The position numbers and the translations under genes are program-made. A stretch of DNA of 64,000 nt from Gammaproteobacteria bacterium (GTDB lineage Bacteria > Pseudomonadota > Gammaproteobacteria > GCA-001735895), in NCBI GenBank assembly GCA_024638385.1, contig JAHEKJ010000003.1:9402-73401 (forward strand). The letters are read 5' to 3'. This document shows, one piece after another, positions 5,056-34,767 of the stretch; positions within the stretch are counted from its first letter, which is position 1, and every line of letters starts with the position of its first letter. The notes under the pieces were generated by a model. That model ran no database searches. It saw nothing but the letters and a program-made list of their open reading frames with translations, and was not told the DNA's origin.

Positions 5056-7365
5056 CTAAAATGCCGCCCCGAGGGCGAACTGGAAATTGCGGGTGTCGTC
5101 ACCGGATTCCTCGTTCAGCGGCCACGCATAACTGAATTCGATCGGGCCAATCAGCGAGAACCACTTCGCGGAGATACCCAGCGACTGCCTCAGCTCGTCC
5201 GATTCGAATGAATCGGCGTCGGCAAACACGTTGCCGACGTCGAAGTATAACCCAAGCCTGAAGGTTTCTGTACTGCCCAGGGCTTCGACCGGGATCAGGA
5301 ACTCGGCGGTCGAAACCACCTGCAAATTGCCGCCGAACGGATCGCCGGTGCTGTCGAGCGGCCCGAGGCTGTTGAACTCGTAGCCGCGCACCGAGCGCAC
5401 GCCGCCGGCGGTAAATTTCTCGTAAATCGGCAAATCCTCGGTTTCGCCATAGCTGTCGCCGTAACCGATGCGTCCGCTGAAAGCAAAAGTCACGTCGTCG
5501 GTCACCGCGAACGCGCTCTGGTGGCGATAGCGCAGCTTGTAGAAGTCCAGATCGCCGCCCTGCAGTTCGAGGCTGATGCTGTTGACCTGGCCCGAGCTCG
5601 CGAAGATGCGCCGGTTGCGCGTATCCTTGGAAAAGCGGACCTCGCCGAACAGCGTGTCGAAGCGGGCGCTGTCGATCTCCGATCTCGGCGTCGAAGCGTC
5701 GAATTCGTCGCTGTTATCGACCAGGAAATCGAGCACTTCGTCGGCCGACGCGCTGGTCGTTTCGAGCTCGTTGCGCAACACTCCGAACTCGAGCCGTAAC
5801 GCGTTGAATTCGGACAACGGAATGCCGTACTCCATCGACAGGCTGATCCGATCGAGCAGGTAGTTACTGGTGTTGTTCTCGGAAGCATCGGTTTCTGTGA
5901 ACGAGAAACTGAAGCCTCGACTGACGCCATCGGGCGTGTAGTAAGGGTTGACGTAACGAAACCGGTAGCGCTCCGAGGCGGCCGAGTTATCGAAAGTCAG
6001 ATCGACGTTCTTGCCGGTGCCGAGAATGTTTTCGTGGGAGAACCCGAGGTTGACGATCACGCCCTGGACCTGGGAGTAACCGATACCGACCTGCAGGTTA
6101 CCCGAGAAGCGTTCGCTAACGGCGACGTTGATGTCGAGCTGGTCTTCGCTGCCGGGCACCCGCTCGAGCGCGAACTCGACGCTGCCGATGTAGTTCAGGC
6201 GCTGCAGGCGCACGCGCGAGCGATCGACTTTCGAGCGCTGGTAAAGCTCGCCCTCGAGCTGGCGCATTTCGCGCCGCAAGACGATGTCGCGGGTCTTGTC
6301 GTTACCCGAAAAGTTGATGTAGCGCACGCGCATCCTGTTGCCCGGCTGGACGAGAAATTGCAACGCGACCGTGTTGTCGGCCGCGTTGATTTCGTTGCTG
6401 AGACGGATCTCGGCATAGGCGTAGCCGTCTTCGCCAAGCCGCCTCTGCATCGCGCTGATGACTTCGCTGACGACCTTGCGCGAAAAAATATCGCCCTCGC
6501 GAAAGATGATCAGAGCCCTGAGCTCGGCCTCGTCGACGACCATTTCGCCGGCGATGGCGATGCTACTGATGCGAAACGGCTTGCCCTCGGAAATGTTGAT
6601 CGTCAGGTTGATGTCCTTGCGGTCGGGGCTGATCGTGACCTGCTGCGAATCGACCCGGAACTGGATATAACCGCGATCGAGGTAAAAAGACTTGAGCGCC
6701 TCCAGGTCCGCCGTCAGCTTGGTGCTCGAATACTCGTCGTTCGGAAACCAGCCCTCGCTCGACGGTTCGAGCTCGAAGACATCGAGCAACTCGGCCTCGG
6801 CGAAATCCCGGTTGCCGGTAATGTTGATCGACTTGATCGTCGCCGAGACACCTTCCGAAATCTCGATATCGATCGCGACCCGGTCGTCGTCGAGCGCGCG
6901 CCAGCTCGCATCGATACGCGCGGCGTACTTGCCGAGCGAGTAATAAACCTGCTGCAGTTCGAGCTCGAGGCGGTCGAGCTTGTGCTCGTCGAATATCCGT
7001 CCCTTGGCCATGCCGATGCCGTCGAGCGCCTGCTCGAGGGTCTCGTCTTCGATATCGTCGTTACCCTCGAAGTTGACTTCGGCGATCGACGGCCGCTCGC
7101 TGACCTTGATAACCAGCACGTCGTCGCGCCGCAGGAGCTCGATGTCGTCGAAAAAGCCGGTCGAATAGAGTTCGCGAATGATTTCCGGGCTGCGATCGGT
7201 GTCGAAACTCTCGCCGACGTTGATCGGCAGGTAACTGAATACCGTGCCGATCGTGATTTTCTTGATGCCGATGACCTCGATATTCTCGACGACAAAACTA
7301 TCCGCGTGCGCCGCGGCGCTCACCAGCAGCAACAACAGTGCACTGACTCGAATCCAGCCCTTCAA
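5056..7365 (-). CDS. bamA: Outer membrane protein assembly factor BamA
   Basis: The ORF runs to 7419. POTRA-like repeats are followed by a beta-barrel ending in NFQFALGAAF. I prefer TTG 7365 as the start (LKGWIRVSALLLLLVSAAAHA signal peptide), 2 nt after the rseP stop. ATG 7419 would overlap rseP by 52 nt. Confidence 0.93.
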   Translation of the reverse strand: MKGWIRVSALLLLLVSAAAHADSFVVENIEVIGIKKITIGTVFSYLPINVGESFDTDRSPEIIRELYSTGFFDDIELLRRDDVLVIKVSERPSIAEVNFEGNDDIEDETLEQALDGIGMAKGRIFDEHKLDRLELELQQVYYSLGKYAARIDASWRALDDDRVAIDIEISEGVSATIKSINITGNRDFAEAELLDVFELEPSSEGWFPNDEYSSTKLTADLEALKSFYLDRGYIQFRVDSQQVTISPDRKDINLTINISEGKPFRISSIAIAGEMVVDEAELRALIIFREGDIFSRKVVSEVISAMQRRLGEDGYAYAEIRLSNEINAADNTVALQFLVQPGNRMRVRYINFSGNDKTRDIVLRREMRQLEGELYQRSKVDRSRVRLQRLNYIGSVEFALERVPGSEDQLDINVAVSERFSGNLQVGIGYSQVQGVIVNLGFSHENILGTGKNVDLTFDNSAASERYRFRYVNPYYTPDGVSRGFSFSFTETDASENNTSNYLLDRISLSMEYGIPLSEFNALRLEFGVLRNELETTSASADEVLDFLVDNSDEFDASTPRSEIDSARFDTLFGEVRFSKDTRNRRIFASSGQVNSISLELQGGDLDFYKLRYRHQSAFAVTDDVTFAFSGRIGYGDSYGETEDLPIYEKFTAGGVRSVRGYEFNSLGPLDSTGDPFGGNLQVVSTAEFLIPVEALGSTETFRLGLYFDVGNVFADADSFESDELRQSLGISAKWFSLIGPIEFSYAWPLNEESGDDTRNFQFALGAAF

Positions 7366-7367
7366 GC

Positions 7368-8747
7368 CTATTCGACCAGGCGCAACAAATCGTTGTAGAT
7401 CGCGACCGACATCAGGCAAAACAGCAGCAGGATGCCGATTTTCTGGCCGATGATTTCGGTTTGCTCCGAAACGGGACTACCCTTGAAAACTTCGATCAGG
7501 TAGTAAAGTAGATGCCCGCCGTCGAGCATCGGCACCGGCAACAGATTGAGCACGCCGAGGCTGATGCTGATGATGGCGAGAAAGCCGAGAAACGGCTCGA
7601 GTCCGATTTGCGCCGACAGCCCGGCGTAATGAGCGATCGTAATCGGCCCGCTCAGATTGCGGAGGCTGGCCTCGCCGGTGACCAGCTTGCCGAGCACGCG
7701 CAGCGTAAGCCAGGTCATTCGCCAGGTCTTGTCGAGCGCGCTGGCAAGACCGTCGATCGGCCCGAAACGCTCGGTCACGAGCATTTCGCGTCGCATCGAC
7801 TCGGGAATATCGACCCGGTTGCGCACGCCGATATAGCCGTAGGTCTCGCCCCCGTCGTTACGGCTTTCGGGCGTGATCCGGAGCTCGACCTCGGCGCCGT
7901 TACGCGTGACCCGCAGCGGCATTTCACGCTCGGGGTTGGCGCGAATCAACTCGACCCACTGGCCCGCGCTCTCGATCGTAACGCCGTCGAGCGCGACGAT
8001 CCGGTCCTCCTCGCGCAGGCCGGCCCGCGACGCCGCGCCGTCGGCGAGCACCTCGTCGATAACCGGCGGGATTCGCGGCCGCCATTGCGACAGCCCGAGA
8101 TCGCGCATCAGGTCGATCTGCTCGTCCCGCAACAGGTTCAAACCGCGAATATCGATCACCTTTTCCTCGATTCGTAACTGCGGCGTCTGCACCTCGAGCC
8201 TGATCTCGTCGGCGCCGACCGCCTCTTCGAGCAGCGAGAAGCGCGCCTTTTCCCAGGTCGTCGTTTCGATGCCGTTGACCGCCAGTATCAGATCGCCGGC
8301 CTGAACCCCCGCTGTGTAGGCCGGGCTCGAATCGGCGATTTCGCCGATGACCGGCTTGACGCCGCTGACGCCGGCGAGAAATATCAGGTAATAGGCCAGG
8401 ATCGCGAACAGGAAGTTGAAGGCCGGGCCGGCGGCGACGATCGCGAACCGGCGCCAGACCGACTTGCGGTTGAAGGCGCGCTCGACCTCCCCTGCCTCGA
8501 CCTCGCCCTCGCGCTCGTCGAGCATCTTGACGTATCCGCCGAACGGAATCGCCGCGATTACGTACTCGGTCTGATCCGGGCCGGAGCGCCTGAGCCACAG
8601 CGGCTTGCCGAAGCCGACGGAGAAGCGCAGCACCTTGACGCCGAGCCGGCGGGCGACCCAGAAGTGACCGAACTCGTGCACCGTCACCAATACGCCGATG
8701 GCGACGATGAAGGCCAGCACGCTGTATATCAAACTCAGAAAATCCAT
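7368..8747 (-). CDS. rseP: Site-2 (RIP) zinc metalloprotease RseP
   Basis: 459 aa. HEFGHFWVAR motif in the first TM, central PDZ-like region, C-terminal LPVPMLDGGHL motif. Confidence 0.94.
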   Translation of the reverse strand: MDFLSLIYSVLAFIVAIGVLVTVHEFGHFWVARRLGVKVLRFSVGFGKPLWLRRSGPDQTEYVIAAIPFGGYVKMLDEREGEVEAGEVERAFNRKSVWRRFAIVAAGPAFNFLFAILAYYLIFLAGVSGVKPVIGEIADSSPAYTAGVQAGDLILAVNGIETTTWEKARFSLLEEAVGADEIRLEVQTPQLRIEEKVIDIRGLNLLRDEQIDLMRDLGLSQWRPRIPPVIDEVLADGAASRAGLREEDRIVALDGVTIESAGQWVELIRANPEREMPLRVTRNGAEVELRITPESRNDGGETYGYIGVRNRVDIPESMRREMLVTERFGPIDGLASALDKTWRMTWLTLRVLGKLVTGEASLRNLSGPITIAHYAGLSAQIGLEPFLGFLAIISISLGVLNLLPVPMLDGGHLLYYLIEVFKGSPVSEQTEIIGQKIGILLLFCLMSVAIYNDLLRLVE

Positions 8748-29259: not shown

Positions 29260-30555
29260 CTAGCCGGTCCTGGCGCTGTCGGCCCGCTTGCGCCGCGCGC
29301 GCTTGCCGCGCCGGATCGACGTAACCGTCGCCCGATCCTTGCGCGCGAGTTCGCGCTCGACCTCGTACATGTAATCGCGCGTGATCGGCAAGGCGTTCAC
29401 GTCGCGCGCGAGCTGCAGCTGGAACACGGTGATGTCGAGGTAGCGGAAAGTCGCCTCGCAGCCGAGCAGGTACAATTCCCACATACGGCAAAAACGCTCG
29501 TCGTAGAGTTCGGCAACGCGCCCGCGATTGGCGGCGAAACGCTCGTGCCAGCGCTCGAGCGTCTCGGCATAGTGTAACCGCAGGTTTTCGAAGTCGGTCA
29601 ACCACAGGCCGGTATTTTCGATCGTGCGCGTCAACTGCGAAGCCGATGGCAGGTAAGCGCCGGGAAAGATGTACTTGCGAATCCAGGCGTTGATCGGCCG
29701 CGGCTTGTTCATGCGCGCGATCGTGTGAATCAGCGCGACACCGTCGGGCTCGAGCAGATCGCGGACCTTGCGAAAATACTCGCCGTAATGAAACTGACCG
29801 ACGTGCTCGAGCATGCCGACCGAGACGATCCGGTCGAACCGGTCCTCGAGGGTTCGATAATCGCGCAACTCGAATTTGACGCGGTCGTCGAGCCCGGCGT
29901 CGTGGGACCGCTGCCGCGACAGCTTCAGCTGCTCTTCGGACAGGGTGACGCCGGTTACCTGACAATCGAATTGCTTGGCGATATACAGCGCGAGACCGCC
30001 CCAGCCGGAACCGATGTCGAGTACGCGCATGCCCGGGCGAACATCGAGCTTGGCCGCGATATGGCGTTTTTTTAGCAACTGCGCGGTATCGATATCCTCG
30101 TCGCCGGAGCGAAAATAGGCGCAGGAATATTGCCGGTCGGCGTCGAGAAACAGGTCGTAGAGCTCGGCCGACAAGTCGTAGTGGTGGGCGACGTTTTCGC
30201 GCGCCCGGCTGATCGGGTTGTAATGCGCGCCGGCGGCGAAAACGCTGTAAAGGCGCCGGCGCAGTTCGCTCAACCAGGTGGCGTCGAAGCGCTTGTCCGA
30301 ATGCTCGAGGATTTCGAGAAACTCGGCGAGGCTACCCTCCTCGATGACGAGACCACCGTCCATGTAAGCCTCGCCCCAGGCCGTCGAGCTCAAACGCAAC
30401 AGCTTGCGCTCGGTCGAGTGATCGGTGATCCGAAAAACCACGGTCGGGCCGTCGAGGTCGCAAAGCCGATGGCGCTCGCCGCGCGCATCGATCAGCGTCA
30501 GCCTGCCGTGATTAAAAAAGCGGCGCAAGATAGTAACTAGAATCACGATGTCCAC
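29260..30555 (-). CDS. cfa: Cyclopropane-fatty-acyl-phospholipid synthase family SAM methyltransferase
   Basis: 431 aa. HYDLSAELYDLFLD, SAM motif VLDIGSGWGGLA, SVGMLEHVG. Confidence 0.85.
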   Translation of the reverse strand: MDIVILVTILRRFFNHGRLTLIDARGERHRLCDLDGPTVVFRITDHSTERKLLRLSSTAWGEAYMDGGLVIEEGSLAEFLEILEHSDKRFDATWLSELRRRLYSVFAAGAHYNPISRARENVAHHYDLSAELYDLFLDADRQYSCAYFRSGDEDIDTAQLLKKRHIAAKLDVRPGMRVLDIGSGWGGLALYIAKQFDCQVTGVTLSEEQLKLSRQRSHDAGLDDRVKFELRDYRTLEDRFDRIVSVGMLEHVGQFHYGEYFRKVRDLLEPDGVALIHTIARMNKPRPINAWIRKYIFPGAYLPSASQLTRTIENTGLWLTDFENLRLHYAETLERWHERFAANRGRVAELYDERFCRMWELYLLGCEATFRYLDITVFQLQLARDVNALPITRDYMYEVERELARKDRATVTSIRRGKRARRKRADSARTG

Positions 30556-30743
30556 CCTGCCATTCTTGTCATCGGACCGCTCATACTACTGTTTTTATTC
30601 TGTTTTTACCATGCTCCGCCCGGACCGCGGTTATCCATGCGCCAACGGCGTCGAGGCTTTGACTTCGCCGGGAAAACATTATTCAATACGCGGGCCGAGC
30701 CCGCCGCGTCCGCCGGGCAGCCCAATCGCCAGAGATCCCGTCC

Positions 30744-31682
30744 ATGGATATTCAGCGCCTGCTCACGAGCCTAAGTTCCACGATCATCGTCCAGTTCGGC
30801 GTCGTCGTCGCGGCCGCAATCGGTTTGACCGCCTGGAATTTCGACGTCATCCGGCCGTTTTACTTCGACAACCAGCTCACCGACACGGGCATTATCATCA
30901 ACAGCGCGATCGTCATGCTGCTCGTCATCGGCCTCGGCAATATTCTTTTTCACCTGTTACGTTACCGCCGCGAGGAAGCCGCGATCGCGCTGTTCGTCAA
31001 CAACATCGAGGCGCTCAAGACCGACCTGCTCGAGGGCTTGCCGGCGGATTCGGTGGTCGCGAAGCGGCAGACGACGATGCGCTCGATCCAGGCGGCGCGC
31101 GGCGAGATCGATCACGGTGCGCTGGCGGCGATGCAAAATGCCGACGAGGCGACCCGCTTCGGCCTGATCCGTTTCATCAACAACATCCTGATTCTGACCG
31201 GCGTCTTTGGCACGATCGTGGCCCTGTCGATCGCGCTGCTCGGGGCATCCGATCTGCTCGACTCGGCCGACGCGAGCCTCGGCGGCATGGGCCTCGTGAT
31301 TCACGGCATGTCGACCGCGCTGTCGACGACGATTACCGCGATCATCGCCTATCTCGTCTTCGGTTACTTCTACACCCGGCTCGCCGACGTGCAGACGCAT
31401 TTCCTGAGCAGTGTCGAGCAACTGACCTCGATCTACCTGTTGCCGCAATTCGTCAAGACCGAAACCGATATCGTGCACCAGATGAACGATTTGCTCGAAG
31501 CGGTCGTGCAGGCGGCCGACAACCTCAGGCTGACGCAAGAGGTGTATCATGAATCGGCGCTCGCGCTGCAGCAAAATCTCGCCGCGAACCGCGAGCAGAT
31601 CGCTTCGCTCGGCGCCGAGATCGACGGCATCAAGCGGATTCTGCGCGAGGGCTTCCGCCTGCCGCGCGAAGAGGTGACCTAG
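30744..31682 (+). CDS. ExbB/TolQ/MotA-family proton-channel-like membrane protein with helical C-terminal tail
   Basis: 312 aa with four hydrophobic segments. LTGVFGTIVAL matches GxxGT[VI] and GMSTALSTTITAIIAY matches G[IM]SxALxxT in the last two TMs, as in ExbB/TolQ. A ~90-aa helical tail follows. Confidence 0.6.
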   Translation: MDIQRLLTSLSSTIIVQFGVVVAAAIGLTAWNFDVIRPFYFDNQLTDTGIIINSAIVMLLVIGLGNILFHLLRYRREEAAIALFVNNIEALKTDLLEGLPADSVVAKRQTTMRSIQAARGEIDHGALAAMQNADEATRFGLIRFINNILILTGVFGTIVALSIALLGASDLLDSADASLGGMGLVIHGMSTALSTTITAIIAYLVFGYFYTRLADVQTHFLSSVEQLTSIYLLPQFVKTETDIVHQMNDLLEAVVQAADNLRLTQEVYHESALALQQNLAANREQIASLGAEIDGIKRILREGFRLPREEVT

Positions 31683-31686
31683 GCCC

Positions 31687-32703
31687 GTGCACGCAAGCTT
31701 TCCTCCAATCGGCGGCAGCCACGCCGGAATCGGCGGCGAGAACAGCTTCTGGCCGTCGTTCACCGACGTCATGATGGTCATCACGCTGATTTTCCTGATG
31801 GCCACCAGCCTGCTGGTGGTGCGCAACTGGCAGCTCGTCGCCGAATTGCAGGAAAGCGTCGCCGCCGAGCGCCTTGCCGCCGAAATGATCCAGTCGACGA
31901 CGCAGGAAAACATCACGCTCGAGGAGCGCCTCGCGAATGCCGAGCAGGCCAACTCGATTCTGCGCCTGCGCCTGATGAAACGCGACGAGGACCTCGCCGC
32001 CGCCGAGGCCGGCATTCGCGAGAGGGACGCCAGCATCGCCACGCTCGAACTCGGCAATCAGGACCTGCGGCAGTCGCTCGAGCGGACCCGGACGCAACTC
32101 GAGACCGCCAATCTCGAAATCGACGCGATGACCGCGCAAAGCCAGGAACTGTCGCGCCAGCTCGCGGATCTCAGGCAGCAACTGGCGCAGCAGCAACTCG
32201 CCGGCGAACAAACCCGCGAACGCCTCGCCACGGCGCAGGCGCAGATCGCCAGGCTGGCCGCGTCGACCGAGAGCCAGCAGCAGAGCATCGAGCAACTGAC
32301 CGAGGAGAAGGCGGAACTCGCGCGCGAAAGATCTCTGCTGCGCGACGAAATCGAGGACTACAACCAGCAACTGCTGGCGCTCAAGGGCGAGTATGAGACG
32401 GTCAAGTCGAAGTACGAAGAGCTGATCAAGCCGGCGCGAACCGCCCGGGGCAAGTACATCGCCGAGGTTTATTACGTCAAGGGCGAGGACGGCAACATCA
32501 TTCGCTACCGCGAACCCGGCGGCGAATTCTCTCGCCTGGGCCTGGCCGAGGTCGAACGCAGGCTCGGCCGGCTGAAACAGGAGAAGGGCAAGGATCTGTA
32601 CGTCAAGATCATCATTCCACAGGACAGCGGCCTGACCTACAACGAAGCGTGGAATTTCATGCGCAACCTGCTGGTCAAGTACGACTACTACTACCAGGAA
32701 TGA
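31687..32703 (+). CDS. ExbD/TolR-like anchor protein with ~200-aa coiled coil and ExbD-like C-terminal domain
   Basis: 338 aa. GTG start lies 4 nt after the upstream stop. The TM segment FWPSFTDVMMVITLIFLMAT compares with the ExbD/TolR pattern P..DV..V..LIF.MAT and keeps the essential Asp. Residues ~45-250 are E/Q/L/A/R heptad-like. The C-terminal YIAEVYYVKGEDGNIIRY...LYVKIIIPQDSGLTYNEAWNFMRNLL has a beta-alpha-beta-alpha pattern. Confidence 0.55.
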   Translation: MHASFPPIGGSHAGIGGENSFWPSFTDVMMVITLIFLMATSLLVVRNWQLVAELQESVAAERLAAEMIQSTTQENITLEERLANAEQANSILRLRLMKRDEDLAAAEAGIRERDASIATLELGNQDLRQSLERTRTQLETANLEIDAMTAQSQELSRQLADLRQQLAQQQLAGEQTRERLATAQAQIARLAASTESQQQSIEQLTEEKAELARERSLLRDEIEDYNQQLLALKGEYETVKSKYEELIKPARTARGKYIAEVYYVKGEDGNIIRYREPGGEFSRLGLAEVERRLGRLKQEKGKDLYVKIIIPQDSGLTYNEAWNFMRNLLVKYDYYYQE

Positions 32704-32794
32704 TGCAGCCGATGCAGATCGGCCGGCAGGTTTCCCCCGTCAAGTCCCCGTGGCGCGACGCCGGTCTGAGGTATATCGCTGGTTTTCCTTACGT

Positions 32795-32828
32795 CAAACC
32801 CGCCCCCAGAAGATCTGGAGGCGGTTTG
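32795..32828. terminator. Imperfect long hairpin between convergent genes (candidate bidirectional terminator)
   Basis: CAAACCCGCCCCCAGA-AGA-TCTGGAGGCGGTTTG has about 15 paired positions with one bulge and one mismatch. It is flanked by short T/A runs. It sits between the stop at 32703 (+) and the stop at 32872 (-). Confidence 0.45.
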
Positions 32829-32871
32829 ATGGTCTTGCCGGCCGAGGTACAGACGAAAGAATCCGCGCGGC

Positions 32872-34632
32872 TCAGCTTGCCGGAACCGCGTCCGCCGACA
32901 CCTGGCTCCTGTTCAATGCCTTGCTGCGCTGCAGATCCCACCAGGCAAACGCAAAGTAGATGATCGTGCACCAGATGGTGATATCGTAAAACAACTCGCG
33001 ATTGACGTAGTAGTCGTAAAGATTCGGGCTGTTGAACAGGACACGCCAGGCAAGCACAGCCGGCACTAACAACCCGATTACGATCCACACCGCCCGGATT
33101 ATCTTGGTTAATATAGTCGTGTCCTTGACCTTGACATGGGTTTCCTTCGCGGCCAGCTGGGCATGGTACTCCTTGACTCTGCGGTCGAATTCCTGCTCCC
33201 TTTGTTCCGCTTCCGGATAGCTCTTGTCGGCGCCGGCCGCCTTCGCCAGCAGGGTGTAGCAGACGATCGAGAGCACCCAGGTCGGCAGGAACAGGTACAC
33301 GAAGTATATGATGCCGAGGGCATCCAGCCCGAAGCCGAACACCAGGCAGATCGCCCAGGTGATCAGCGCAGGCTTGTTGTCCTTGAGGCCCTTCAGACGG
33401 TGCCAGTTGCTCTTGTAGCCGAGCCGGTGAAAAATGTGCTGCTCGGCGAATACGACTCCGCCGATCGGCACGAGGACGAGTCCCGCGTAGGCAAGAATCG
33501 GCAGGATTTGGCGGTAGATGAACGGGAAACAGCTGCCGACCACGACCACGGCCCCGACAACAAGCGTTACCTTTTGGCGTGCGACGTTAGGGAATACCGC
33601 TTGAGCCGCGAGACCTGCTCGATAGAGGTTGGGGTTGGCCGTTGTCCATCCGGCGATGATGACGATGATAAAGCCGGTGGCGCCAAGCGCGTAGTAGGCA
33701 ACATCCCCGGGTGAAACCACGGCGATACTCAATTTCATGATCGACGCCGTCGCTGCCCCCATCAATGCCGCGGAAATCCAGGCGATGTAGTGGCCGAACA
33801 TCATACCGGTTGCGGTACAAAGACCGTAGACCGATTTTTTCGCGTAGCGCAGGAGCGCCATGTCGATGAGGCCGAAATGCGCGAAGGTGTTCGCCGCCCA
33901 GGCGAAGCCTATCACTTCCACCAATCCGATCCCGGGTTCCCCTTCGGCATTGATGCCGGTAAACACGGTTGTGCCCGCCAGGTTCACGAAATCGGAGAAA
34001 CTCGCCAGCGTCGTGTACCCGGTCAGCGTTTCGTTCAACGACGGTATCAGCACCATGCCGCCGGCGGTGAACATCACCATCAGCCAGGGTGTGCAAATGG
34101 TGGCAAACTCGGCCACCACATTGAAACCGTAATAGGCCACCAGCACCGCGATCACGCTCGCCGAGGCGGCAATGATGGCAAAGTAGACGTTGGTGGGATA
34201 CGGATAGATCTGCGGCGGAATCTCGAACAGCACCCGCACCGCGGTCGCCGACACGGTGATCATGGCCGCCGAGATGGCCACGAAGATCAGCACGTTCGCA
34301 CCGTTGTAGAGCCGCGAGGCCAGCTCGCCCAGGTTGTGTTCGATATAGGTGTAGAGACTGAGCCGCGTTTTGACCGCGATCGGCGCGGTGATGAGCCAGA
34401 AGCTCAGCGCGGCGAGCGTGTTGCCGATGAGGAGCCCGATCAGGATGTCCTCGATGGTGGCGCCCATCGCCACGAATGCGGCGCCGATGACGAATTCGGT
34501 CGCGGCAACGTGTTCCGCACCATAAAGGCCGAGGAAGTGCATTGGGCCATGCAGCCTGTGCTCGGGCACGGGCAGTTGTTCGTCGTCTATTTCGGCTATG
34601 GAGCCTTTATGATCGCGGATGTTGTCAGTCAT
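32872..34632 (-). CDS. NCS1/CodB-like (APC superfamily) secondary transporter with extra C-terminal linker and 2 TMs
   Basis: The ORF runs to TTG 34650. I prefer ATG 34632, which is preceded by GGGGAG. The N-terminal pattern VPEHRLHGPMHFLGLYGAEHVAATEFVIGAAF...LIGLLIGNTLAAL resembles cytosine/purine permeases. About 12 TMs are followed by a charged linker and two more TMs. Confidence 0.55.
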   Translation of the reverse strand: MTDNIRDHKGSIAEIDDEQLPVPEHRLHGPMHFLGLYGAEHVAATEFVIGAAFVAMGATIEDILIGLLIGNTLAALSFWLITAPIAVKTRLSLYTYIEHNLGELASRLYNGANVLIFVAISAAMITVSATAVRVLFEIPPQIYPYPTNVYFAIIAASASVIAVLVAYYGFNVVAEFATICTPWLMVMFTAGGMVLIPSLNETLTGYTTLASFSDFVNLAGTTVFTGINAEGEPGIGLVEVIGFAWAANTFAHFGLIDMALLRYAKKSVYGLCTATGMMFGHYIAWISAALMGAATASIMKLSIAVVSPGDVAYYALGATGFIIVIIAGWTTANPNLYRAGLAAQAVFPNVARQKVTLVVGAVVVVGSCFPFIYRQILPILAYAGLVLVPIGGVVFAEQHIFHRLGYKSNWHRLKGLKDNKPALITWAICLVFGFGLDALGIIYFVYLFLPTWVLSIVCYTLLAKAAGADKSYPEAEQREQEFDRRVKEYHAQLAAKETHVKVKDTTILTKIIRAVWIVIGLLVPAVLAWRVLFNSPNLYDYYVNRELFYDITIWCTIIYFAFAWWDLQRSKALNRSQVSADAVPAS

Positions 34633-34767
34633 TTTTTTCTCCCCCAGCAAATTTTATTTCGAGCCAGTCTTTACGCGACCTGCATCTGCAGATGTTTCAG
34701 GCCGTCGATTAACGCCCGCTGTCCGCATGCAGCGATGCCGAATCGAGCGAGTAGCGCATCGCGGCCC

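Follow-up and report, generated by a model that had tools for sequence, protein, structure and literature searches.

A stalked two-gene module of Gammaproteobacteria as a candidate ion-driven envelope motor with a ZorAB-like membrane core

Introduction

Could two adjacent genes with no recognisable partner beside them make up an ion-driven motor of the bacterial envelope? The question is raised by a locus in a 64,000-nucleotide (nt) stretch of the gammaproteobacterial contig JAHEKJ010000003.1, which was analysed here as a whole (the window; position 1 is its first letter). Gene A (30744..31682, + strand, ATG start) encodes 312 amino acids (aa), and gene B (31687..32703, + strand, GTG start), co-directional with A and separated from it by 4 nt, encodes 338 aa. 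An initial annotation had given the two open reading frames (ORFs) exactly these coordinates and this spacing. It had proposed that they are an ExbB/TolQ-like and ExbD/TolR-like pair, in which the stalk usually supplied by a partner such as TolA is built into the B protein.

Our analysis points to a positive, though qualified, answer. We consider it probable, if far from assured, that A-B is an ion-driven motor of the MotAB/ExbBD/TolQR/ZorAB superfamily (the 5:2 motors), forming a distinct family with a membrane core most like that of ZorAB and an organization as a stalked two-gene module. A would be the channel (pentamer-type) subunit of the MotA/ExbB/TolQ/ZorA superfamily, with four predicted transmembrane (TM) segments, a short cytoplasmic loop and a helical tail. 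B would be the central (dimer-type) subunit of the MotB/ZorB/ExbD type, with a coiled-coil stalk of its own, followed by a small C-terminal domain. The initial annotation is upheld as to the superfamily, the stalk built into B, the lack of partners and the autonomy of the two genes; the nearest relatives prove to be ZorAB, and the ExbD-like character of the C-terminal head had been overstated.

Results

Channel subunit A

The predicted ion-channel core of A (residues 136-223; 31149..31412, + strand) consists of TM3, a periplasmic loop and TM4. It contains both motifs that had been taken as ExbB/TolQ signatures, LTGVFGTIVAL (A 151-161) and GMSTALSTTITAIIAY (A 188-203), here referred to by their cores GVFGT157 and GMSTALSTT196; the codons of T157 and T196 lie at 31212-31214 and 31329-31331, both on the + strand. 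In hhalign comparisons of an alignment of diverse A proteins (A3) with Escherichia coli TolQ and ExbB, the P-values were 0.003 (TolQ, 109-132 columns) and 0.005 (ExbB), and GVFGT157 was paired with GLFGT145/148 and GMSTALSTT196 with GIAEALIAT178/181 (TolQ/ExbB numbering). T157 is accordingly the equivalent of TolQ T145 and ExbB T148, and T196 that of TolQ T178 and ExbB T181. Each of the two is at least 90% conserved in A3, and because of the hhalign equivalence these near-invariant residues fall on the essential channel threonines.

Profile searches agree with the motif comparison. The Pfam family PF01618 (MotA_ExbB) is matched by 71 of 85 diverse A relatives at E <= 0.01 (best E 3.5e-7), ZorA hidden Markov models (HMMs) match up to 24 of the 85 (best E 2.8e-7), and the window copy itself matches the PADLOC model ZorA2 with an E-value of 5e-4. 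Judged by these matches and by the threonine equivalences, A is, as first proposed, a member of the MotA/ExbB/TolQ superfamily, and clearly so at the level of the family.

Hydropathy analysis gives three strongly hydrophobic segments, at about residues 6-36, 44-74 and 141-172. Of the four segments originally listed, the last (the polar TM4, about 184-210) falls under the hydropathy threshold used. Together with the charge distribution, the hydropathy profile suggests four TM segments with both termini inside, a cytoplasmic loop of about 75 aa and a C-terminal helical tail of about 100 aa. The predicted cytoplasmic tail (residues 211-312; 31374..31679, + strand) belongs to two helices, 178-236 and 240-303, in a low-confidence model. 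Its indels come in units of 14 aa, its hydrophobic periodicity has a z-score of 3.4, and in most homologues it extends 114-127 aa past the GMSTALSTT motif. The tail ends in a conserved tip, LREGFRLP, of which G303, F304 and R305 show at least 90% conservation in the diverse family.

In both A and B, conservation is highest in the TM cores. Outside the membrane, the most conserved motifs are the LREGFRLP tip of A (A 303-310 region; window 31650-31673) and the YDYYYQ end of B (32683-32700). To judge by their conservation, both look like partner docking motifs.

Anchor helix of B

The predicted transpore-helix anchor of B, a single TM helix at its N-terminus, comprises residues 17-45 (31735..31821, + strand) and contains the sequence ENSFWPSFTD27VMMVITLIFLMATSLLVV, with Asp27 (codon at 31765-31767) near the cytoplasmic end. 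The third motif cited in the initial annotation, FWPSFTDVMMVITLIFLMAT, is also present (B 21-40) and includes Asp27, which is invariant in 68 of 68 full-length B copies.

Searches of the PDB with whole-length A and B profiles were dominated by generic coiled-coil matches, so the profiles were trimmed to the TM core of A and the anchor of B. With a profile of the first 75 residues of B (A5), the best PDB matches were ZorB chains: 8vvn_B (E 2.2e-6), 8vvi_A (8.5e-4) and 8qyd_F (3.8e-3), which come from the ZorAB structures of type I (Shewanella, 8VVN), type II (Sulfuricurvum, 8VVI) and E. coli (8QYD), respectively. ExbD chains gave E-values of 0.1-0.5. The ungapped A5 alignment places D27 of B on the essential D24 of ZorB; in hhalign comparisons with ExbD, D27 falls on D25, with P-values of 4e-4 to 7e-4. 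ZorB HMMs match 24 of 24 B anchors tested (best E 5.5e-9). By comparison, Pfam ExbD gives weak matches to the isolated anchor in eight of the 24 members (best E 0.0027) and MotB_plug matches one (E 0.065), and the full-length window B has no match to ExbD (PF02472) in Pfam.

Although the anchor had been described as ExbD/TolR-like, what stands of that description is the essential Asp and its alignment with D25 of ExbD; ZorB scores better. On this profile evidence the anchor is a MotB/ZorB-type transpore helix, and the closest characterised relatives of the A-B membrane core are ZorA and ZorB of Zorya rather than ExbBD/TolQR, which had been named as nearest. The best PDB matches of the A core (a non-significant one, discussed below) and of the B anchor are two chains of one ZorAB complex, 8vvn.

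Coiled-coil stalk of B

Residues 46-247 of B (31822..32427, + strand) form a continuous heptad coiled coil that is predicted to be periplasmic. The AlphaFold2 (AF2) model has a single helix over residues 25-244, with a predicted local distance difference test score (pLDDT) above 90 for about 90-230. Hydrophobic residues recur with a period of 3.5 residues (z-score 3.4), and the heptad register is constant over residues 53-214. Reckoned at about 0.15 nm per residue, the window coil would be about 30 nm long when fully extended, within a computed family range of 24-45 nm.

The length of the coil is quantised in heptads. Among 68 homologues it is either 174, 188, 195, 202, 209 or 216 residues (6 mod 7) or 164, 192, 262, 276, 290 or 304 residues (3 mod 7), the exception being one truncated copy. 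Indels of 7, 11, 14 and 28 aa occur at scattered sites, and single 7-residue indels at several asymmetric sites; the latter would fit a parallel in-register dimer better than an antiparallel hairpin. The initial claim of a coil of some 200 residues built into B is borne out by the single helix, the constant register and the quantised lengths alike.

Typical lengths of the A tail and the B coil are 117 and 188-209 aa. The combinations 144/216, 161/262-304 and about 470/about 300 aa are also found, the last in the A homologue P0306 and its partner.

Database matches of whole B are to generic coiled-coil families, e.g., SMC, ATG16, EzrA and IcmG/DotF. Some B homologues (P0121-P0238) carry the precomputed Pfam accessions PF23649, PF24161, PF27605 and PF27241; a re-scan returned generic coiled-coil families only.

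C-terminal head of B

The coil is followed by the KPAR hinge and a small domain with the order strand-strand-strand-helix-strand-helix (residues 248-338; 32428..32700, + strand; AF2 pLDDT 64-80). In this head of 90 aa the hinge is invariant, as are 19 columns of the family alignment (A4) and the YDYYYQ end. The resemblance of the last 80 or so residues to the ExbD/TolR periplasmic domain, which had been noted at the outset, holds for the topology: the order of secondary-structure elements in the AF2 model is that of the ExbD/TolR domain. The fold and sequence matches are non-significant. Foldseek finds ExbD (8vgd, 8vgc, 8p9r and 8pek) and TolR (5by4) with target-normalised template modelling scores of 0.48-0.52 and non-significant E-values of 0.16-0.36, and ribosomal S11 and RNase H-like folds score as well. 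Pfam ExbD on the isolated head matches three of 24 members at a non-significant best E of 0.12, and hhalign against a four-sequence ExbD/TolR profile gives a non-significant P of 0.1 (reversed control, 0.33). An NCBIfam scan and a PDB profile search of the head returned nothing relevant, and no OmpA/peptidoglycan-binding domain was found in it with Pfam or NCBIfam.

Pairing, distribution and inheritance

A and B are always found together. B lies directly downstream of A in 84 of 84 analysed loci, in which identity to the window pair ranges from 45 to 100%, with gaps of -4 to +18 nt where the starts are clean. The same order is kept in three more distant loci (L087, L088 and L089), Zetaproteobacteria included, and the neighbourhood counts below refer to the resulting 87 loci. 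No third gene is conserved beside the pair, and the flanks differ wholly between groups of about 70%, 57% and 46% identity, in keeping with the self-contained two-gene module first proposed.

The databases hold 2921 homologues of A and 978 of B, and a scan of one genome per species found relatives of the pair in about 230 species; A and B are therefore real genes, far beyond chance. The closest 120 homologues of each share 70-94% identity, are about 313 aa (A) or 332 aa (B) long, and are all unnamed proteins of uncultured Gammaproteobacteria; the window A protein itself has no entry in the contig index. An exhaustive profile search resolved the A family into 492 clusters at 50% identity, nearly all with proteins of about 300 aa. 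The hosts are nearly all marine or sediment Gammaproteobacteria, among them the Olavius algarvensis Gamma3 symbiont, a Solemya gill symbiont, Sedimenticola and Thiohalomonadaceae, and the most divergent A members are from Zetaproteobacteria (Mariprofundales). NCBI names one Mariprofundaceae A member 'MotA/TolQ/ExbB proton channel family protein'; the other A and B members are hypothetical proteins.

In its divergence, which tracks that of the neighbouring genes, the pair behaves like a vertically inherited part of the core genome: A averages 71% and B 68% identity to the window copies, and in the same genomes CBS averages 84% and RlmD 67%. Close relatives share the gene order cystathionine gamma-lyase, MR_MLE enzyme, CBS, A, B, and no relative of the pair was found in 2.9 million viral contigs.

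A few loci are unusual. Four (L039, L043, L047 and L068) have an A-B pair of about 66% identity in gammaproteobacterial synteny and come from metagenome-assembled genomes labelled Acidimicrobiia, Urechidicola, Polaribacter and Haliangium; the odd labels most likely reflect bin contamination and not horizontal transfer. At L089 (3402-4097) a B-like ORF overlaps the end of the most divergent A gene (P0369, 27% identity) by 4 nt; its anchor is more MotB-like (NTWSAMTDIM) and it has a coiled coil, but a run of N breaks the sequence before the C-terminus. L087 encodes P0306, an A homologue of 669 aa that is one of the rare members with a long tail (roughly 470 aa) and has a separate B downstream. 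P0306 was considered as an A-B fusion and rejected, being an A with a long tail and a distinct B gene next to it. Just upstream of it (7324-7862) are three overlapping 66-aa ORFs spaced by 169 nt, which probably reflect a tandem DNA repeat, and the pair is followed by genes for a Fic-domain protein and a weakly H-NS-like protein. A 783-aa 'A' in L077 was discarded as an artefact of an open GC-rich frame.

Absence of known partners and of an earlier description

The initial annotation had pointed to the lack of a partner in the window, and this extends to the family. In none of the 87 loci does a TonB, TolA/Pal, flagellar, gliding or ZorCD partner adjoin the pair, nor a ZorC/D, ZorE or ZorF/G gene; the neighbours are metabolic. 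Searches by phmmer with E. coli ExbB/D, TolQ/R/A and MotA/B found no homologue in the 64-kb window or in the loci. Neither A nor B has an OmpA, TonB, TolA or flagellar domain in Pfam, NCBIfam and PADLOC scans, which agrees with the reported absence of an OmpA-like peptidoglycan-binding domain. Profile scans of A and B and Foldseek found no GldL, GldM or PorM family, and there are no type IX secretion system (T9SS) genes nearby.

The pair had also been put forward as undescribed, and we found no description of it, or of ZorAB-like or orphan ZorAB pairs, in the open-access literature. An evolutionary survey of the 5:2 motors (PMC12505986) has no occurrence of the word 'coiled' and does not include the A-B architecture. 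The same is true of a study of TolQ-like proteins (PMC12204202), which has no occurrence of coiled coils and does not describe the architecture.

Locus and neighbouring genes

Upstream of A, and divergent from it, is the cyclopropane-fatty-acid synthase (cfa-type) gene noted earlier (29260..30555, - strand; CMAS match, E 2e-92). The two genes are separated by a divergent intergenic region of 188 nt (30556..30743, no strand assigned), which is presumed to hold the A-B promoter. The sole sigma-70-like match in it is at the cfa end on the - strand, with none assigned to A-B, and an Rfam search of the region gave no match. An orthologue of the window cfa/CMAS gene is divergent and directly upstream of A in 14 loci with A identities of 57-86% (L004-L006, L021, L033, L035, L037, L046, L048, L050, L056, L071, L073 and L075); other loci have just a 37%-identical CMAS paralogue, two genes downstream of the pair. 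The adjacency could be a membrane-lipid link or mere regional synteny.

Downstream and convergent with B is a gene for a polytopic membrane protein of 592 aa (32872-34650, - strand), which matches no Pfam family at E <= 0.001 and is not kept beside the pair in other loci. The hairpin reported between the convergent genes is present as an imperfect GC-rich stem of about 17 bp (32795-32828, no strand assigned; RNA fold of 32700-32875, z = -2.4). It lacks a U/T tract on either strand and was not called in terminator or inverted-repeat scans; it is no canonical intrinsic terminator.

Discussion

A proposed motor

On the pattern of the solved relatives, an A pentamer would enclose the N-terminal helices of two B subunits, and protons or Na+ would pass by way of Asp27 of B and the T157/T196 ring of A, driving relative rotation of A and B. 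The B dimer would continue across the periplasm as a rigid, parallel, in-register coiled coil of about 200 residues and end in the small conserved alpha/beta head, which may dock on peptidoglycan or on an outer-membrane partner. On the other side of the membrane, the short tail of A may contact a cytoplasmic factor through its conserved tip. Rotation could take either of two forms: B may be anchored at its distal end and A rotate about it, the arrangement of ZorAB and MotAB, or B may itself rotate as a shaft, as has been proposed for GldM and for the transpore-helix (TPH)-vWA proteins. The pair would be a self-contained module that performs a housekeeping task of the envelope in Gammaproteobacteria of marine and sediment habitats and in Zetaproteobacteria.

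The stalk invites a more specific and more tentative proposal. The distance quoted for E. coli between the inner membrane and the peptidoglycan is about 9 nm (PMC11946911); a coil of about 30 nm would be expected to extend past the wall, perhaps as far as the outer membrane. The strict heptad phase points to selection on the angular register of head and membrane core, and would favour transmission of torque or register over a simple tether. We raise the possibility, to which we give somewhat less than an even chance, that the B dimer is a rigid, heptad-fixed shaft crossing the periplasm and that the pair is a trans-envelope transducer of force or torque like Tol or Ton, but reduced to two genes. 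It would belong to the core genome of Gamma- and Zetaproteobacteria that live in sediment or symbiosis or oxidise iron or sulfur. The constancy of the heptad phase would then mean that the angular register of membrane rotor and distal head matters and that the stalk transmits torque and is more than a tether.

Several observations weigh against these proposals. The window copy of A, taken singly, reaches only E 0.0021 against PF01618 (18.3 bits, under the 22.9-bit gathering score), and the MotA_ExbB match expected of it is seen at the family level instead. Whole-length A profiles found no significant ExbB, TolQ, MotA or ZorA chain among PDB sequences; the trimmed TM-core profile had a single real match, the ZorA chain 8vvn_C, at a non-significant E of 0.51. 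The AF2 model of A, built on a shallow alignment, has a pLDDT of 54 and lends no fold-level support. As to the stalk, coils of up to 304 aa, or about 45 nm, would be too long for a typical periplasm when standing perpendicular to the membrane. In some lineages (L038, L050, L051, L055, L056, L075 and L087) the A tail and the B coil lengthen together, which is odd if they are on opposite sides of the membrane; the independent events are few, and L088 is a counter-example. Finally, an ExbD-like identity of the head is plausible but unproven.

Three other explanations have to be weighed. In view of the ZorAB-like core, the pair might belong to an anti-phage system of the Zorya type that has diverged or been stripped down. 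A-B would then be the envelope sensor or motor, with effectors that are encoded elsewhere or brought in by the tip of the A tail. Both subunits have their nearest characterised relatives in ZorA and ZorB, A has a helical cytoplasmic tail with a conserved tip, and P0306 has a ZorA-like tail of roughly 470 aa, with the Fic-domain gene downstream of its pair. We nevertheless think a defence role very unlikely: no Zorya effector gene accompanies the pair in the 87 loci, the usual A tail of about 100 aa compares with about 280-500 aa in ZorA, and B lacks the peptidoglycan-binding domain that is essential in ZorB. The syntenic, core-metabolic location, the housekeeping-like divergence and the absence of the family from viral contigs also speak against it, as does an NCBIfam ZorB1 score of 15 bits against a cut-off of 400. 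If A-B is instead an ordinary ExbBD/TolQR paralogue, it would energise a TonB- or TolA-like transducer encoded elsewhere in the genome; the GxFGT and GxxxALxxT motifs of A, the weak Pfam ExbD matches of the anchor and the topology of the head speak for this. There is only a slim chance of it, in our view: ZorB is a better match than ExbD to the anchor, the apparent number of TM segments in A is four and not three, and a B stalk of about 200 aa would make that of TolA or TonB redundant. Nor is there an adjoining tonB or tolA gene in the 87 loci or any in the window, and the members are all annotated as hypothetical, apart from the one with a generic superfamily name.

It is also conceivable that there is no motor at all. 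B might then serve the envelope or the division machinery structurally, as a coiled-coil spacer, scaffold or tether comparable to EzrA, Lpp or DotF, and A would be a degenerate channel-like membrane partner that anchors it. B is mostly coiled coil and matches the generic families listed above, and a heptad-quantised length would suit a molecular ruler. What makes this explanation unlikely is the conservation of the membrane parts: an invariant Asp27 and a near-invariant threonine ring, kept over more than 70% sequence divergence, are hard to explain without ion coupling, and in both proteins conservation peaks in the TM cores. We retain the motor with a built-in stalk as the preferred explanation.

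If this explanation is correct, it has several implications. In the known 5:2 motors, energy reaches the envelope by one of three routes: a distinct transducer protein (TonB or TolA), attachment to the wall in the case of MotB and ZorB, or, for GldM, a shaft of several domains. No simpler trans-envelope transducer would be known than an Asp-bearing axle that runs on as a coiled coil of 30 nm. A coil of defined length and phase, easily shortened, lengthened or cross-linked, would also make a clean system for testing rotation of the B dimer. Several thousand 'hypothetical' proteins of abundant but uncultured marine sediment and symbiont lineages would gain a candidate function, and the ZorAB-type core would extend beyond phage defence.

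Comparison with known motors

The closest likeness is to ZorAB. The anchor motif E-x-x-FW-x-SF-x-D-[IL]-M is common to B and ZorB, with Asp27 corresponding to D24; the TM core of A matches TM2-TM3 of ZorA; and both systems have adjacent genes and a C-terminal helical cytoplasmic tail on the channel subunit. The tails of ZorA are hundreds of residues long and their truncation abolishes defence, and the peptidoglycan-binding domain of ZorB is likewise essential (PMC11946911; PMC11890865). In A-B, by contrast, the tail is far shorter, A apparently has four TM segments where ZorA has three, and the place of the ZorB peptidoglycan-binding domain is taken by the coil and the small alpha/beta head. 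A-B also differs in lacking ZorC/D/E/F/G and in its core-genome context, which is not that of a defence island.

With MotAB/PomAB the cytoplasmic loop of A marks a difference, since at about 75 aa it is too short for the torque-generating interface described in PMC12505986. B has neither an OmpA-like domain nor a plug (the one MotB_plug match noted above apart), and no flagellar genes are nearby. The likenesses are the predicted four-TM topology of A, a W-x-x-x-[FY]-x-D-x-M motif in the B anchor, the adjacent genes and the general 5:2 logic.

In the ExbB-ExbD-TonB and TolQ-TolR-TolA systems the channel motifs and the essential Thr and Asp align with those of A-B, the reach of the stalk would be comparable to that of TolA domain II, and the head is predicted to have the ExbD/TolR order of secondary structure, ExbD and TolR recurring among its weak Foldseek matches. 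There is, however, no separate TolA or TonB in A-B, the stalk being part of the Asp-bearing B. The anchor lacks a significant ExbD-type motif, the sequence likeness of the head is non-significant, and there is no Pal, TolB or TonB-dependent receptor nearby. ExbB and TolQ, like ZorA, have three TM segments, whereas A apparently has four, as does MotA.

In GldLM/PorLM the central dimeric subunit of the 5:2 motor is itself drawn out into a long shaft that spans the periplasm and conveys energy to the outer membrane. The likeness to A-B is one of functional analogy only, in that the central subunit extends as a shaft. The periplasmic region of GldM/PorM is made up of globular domains and is not a coiled coil, whereas B has a coil; moreover, A-B has no Gld family match and no T9SS genes nearby, and its hosts are Gamma- and Zetaproteobacteria.

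A further parallel is found in the 'monomeric force transducers' described in 2025 (Mol Biol Evol; PMC12204202), in which a TolQ-like protein is paired with a TPH-vWA protein. These have no tolR/exbD gene; an Asp-bearing transpore helix is fused to a periplasmic effector and would rotate in the pentamer. The proposed design is the same as that of B, an Asp-bearing helix fused to its effector. There, however, the effector is a vWA domain on a disordered linker and the gene pairs are usually heterologous, whereas here a single B gene would encode a rigid heptad coil and a head of ExbD-like topology. TPH-vWA and GldM/PorM are precedents, by analogy, for B-type subunits with a periplasmic effector of their own. 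Seen beside them, A and B appear, on the evidence of their sequences, to be an undescribed branch of the membrane ion-driven motors, with an architecture that is new within the known 5:2 family.

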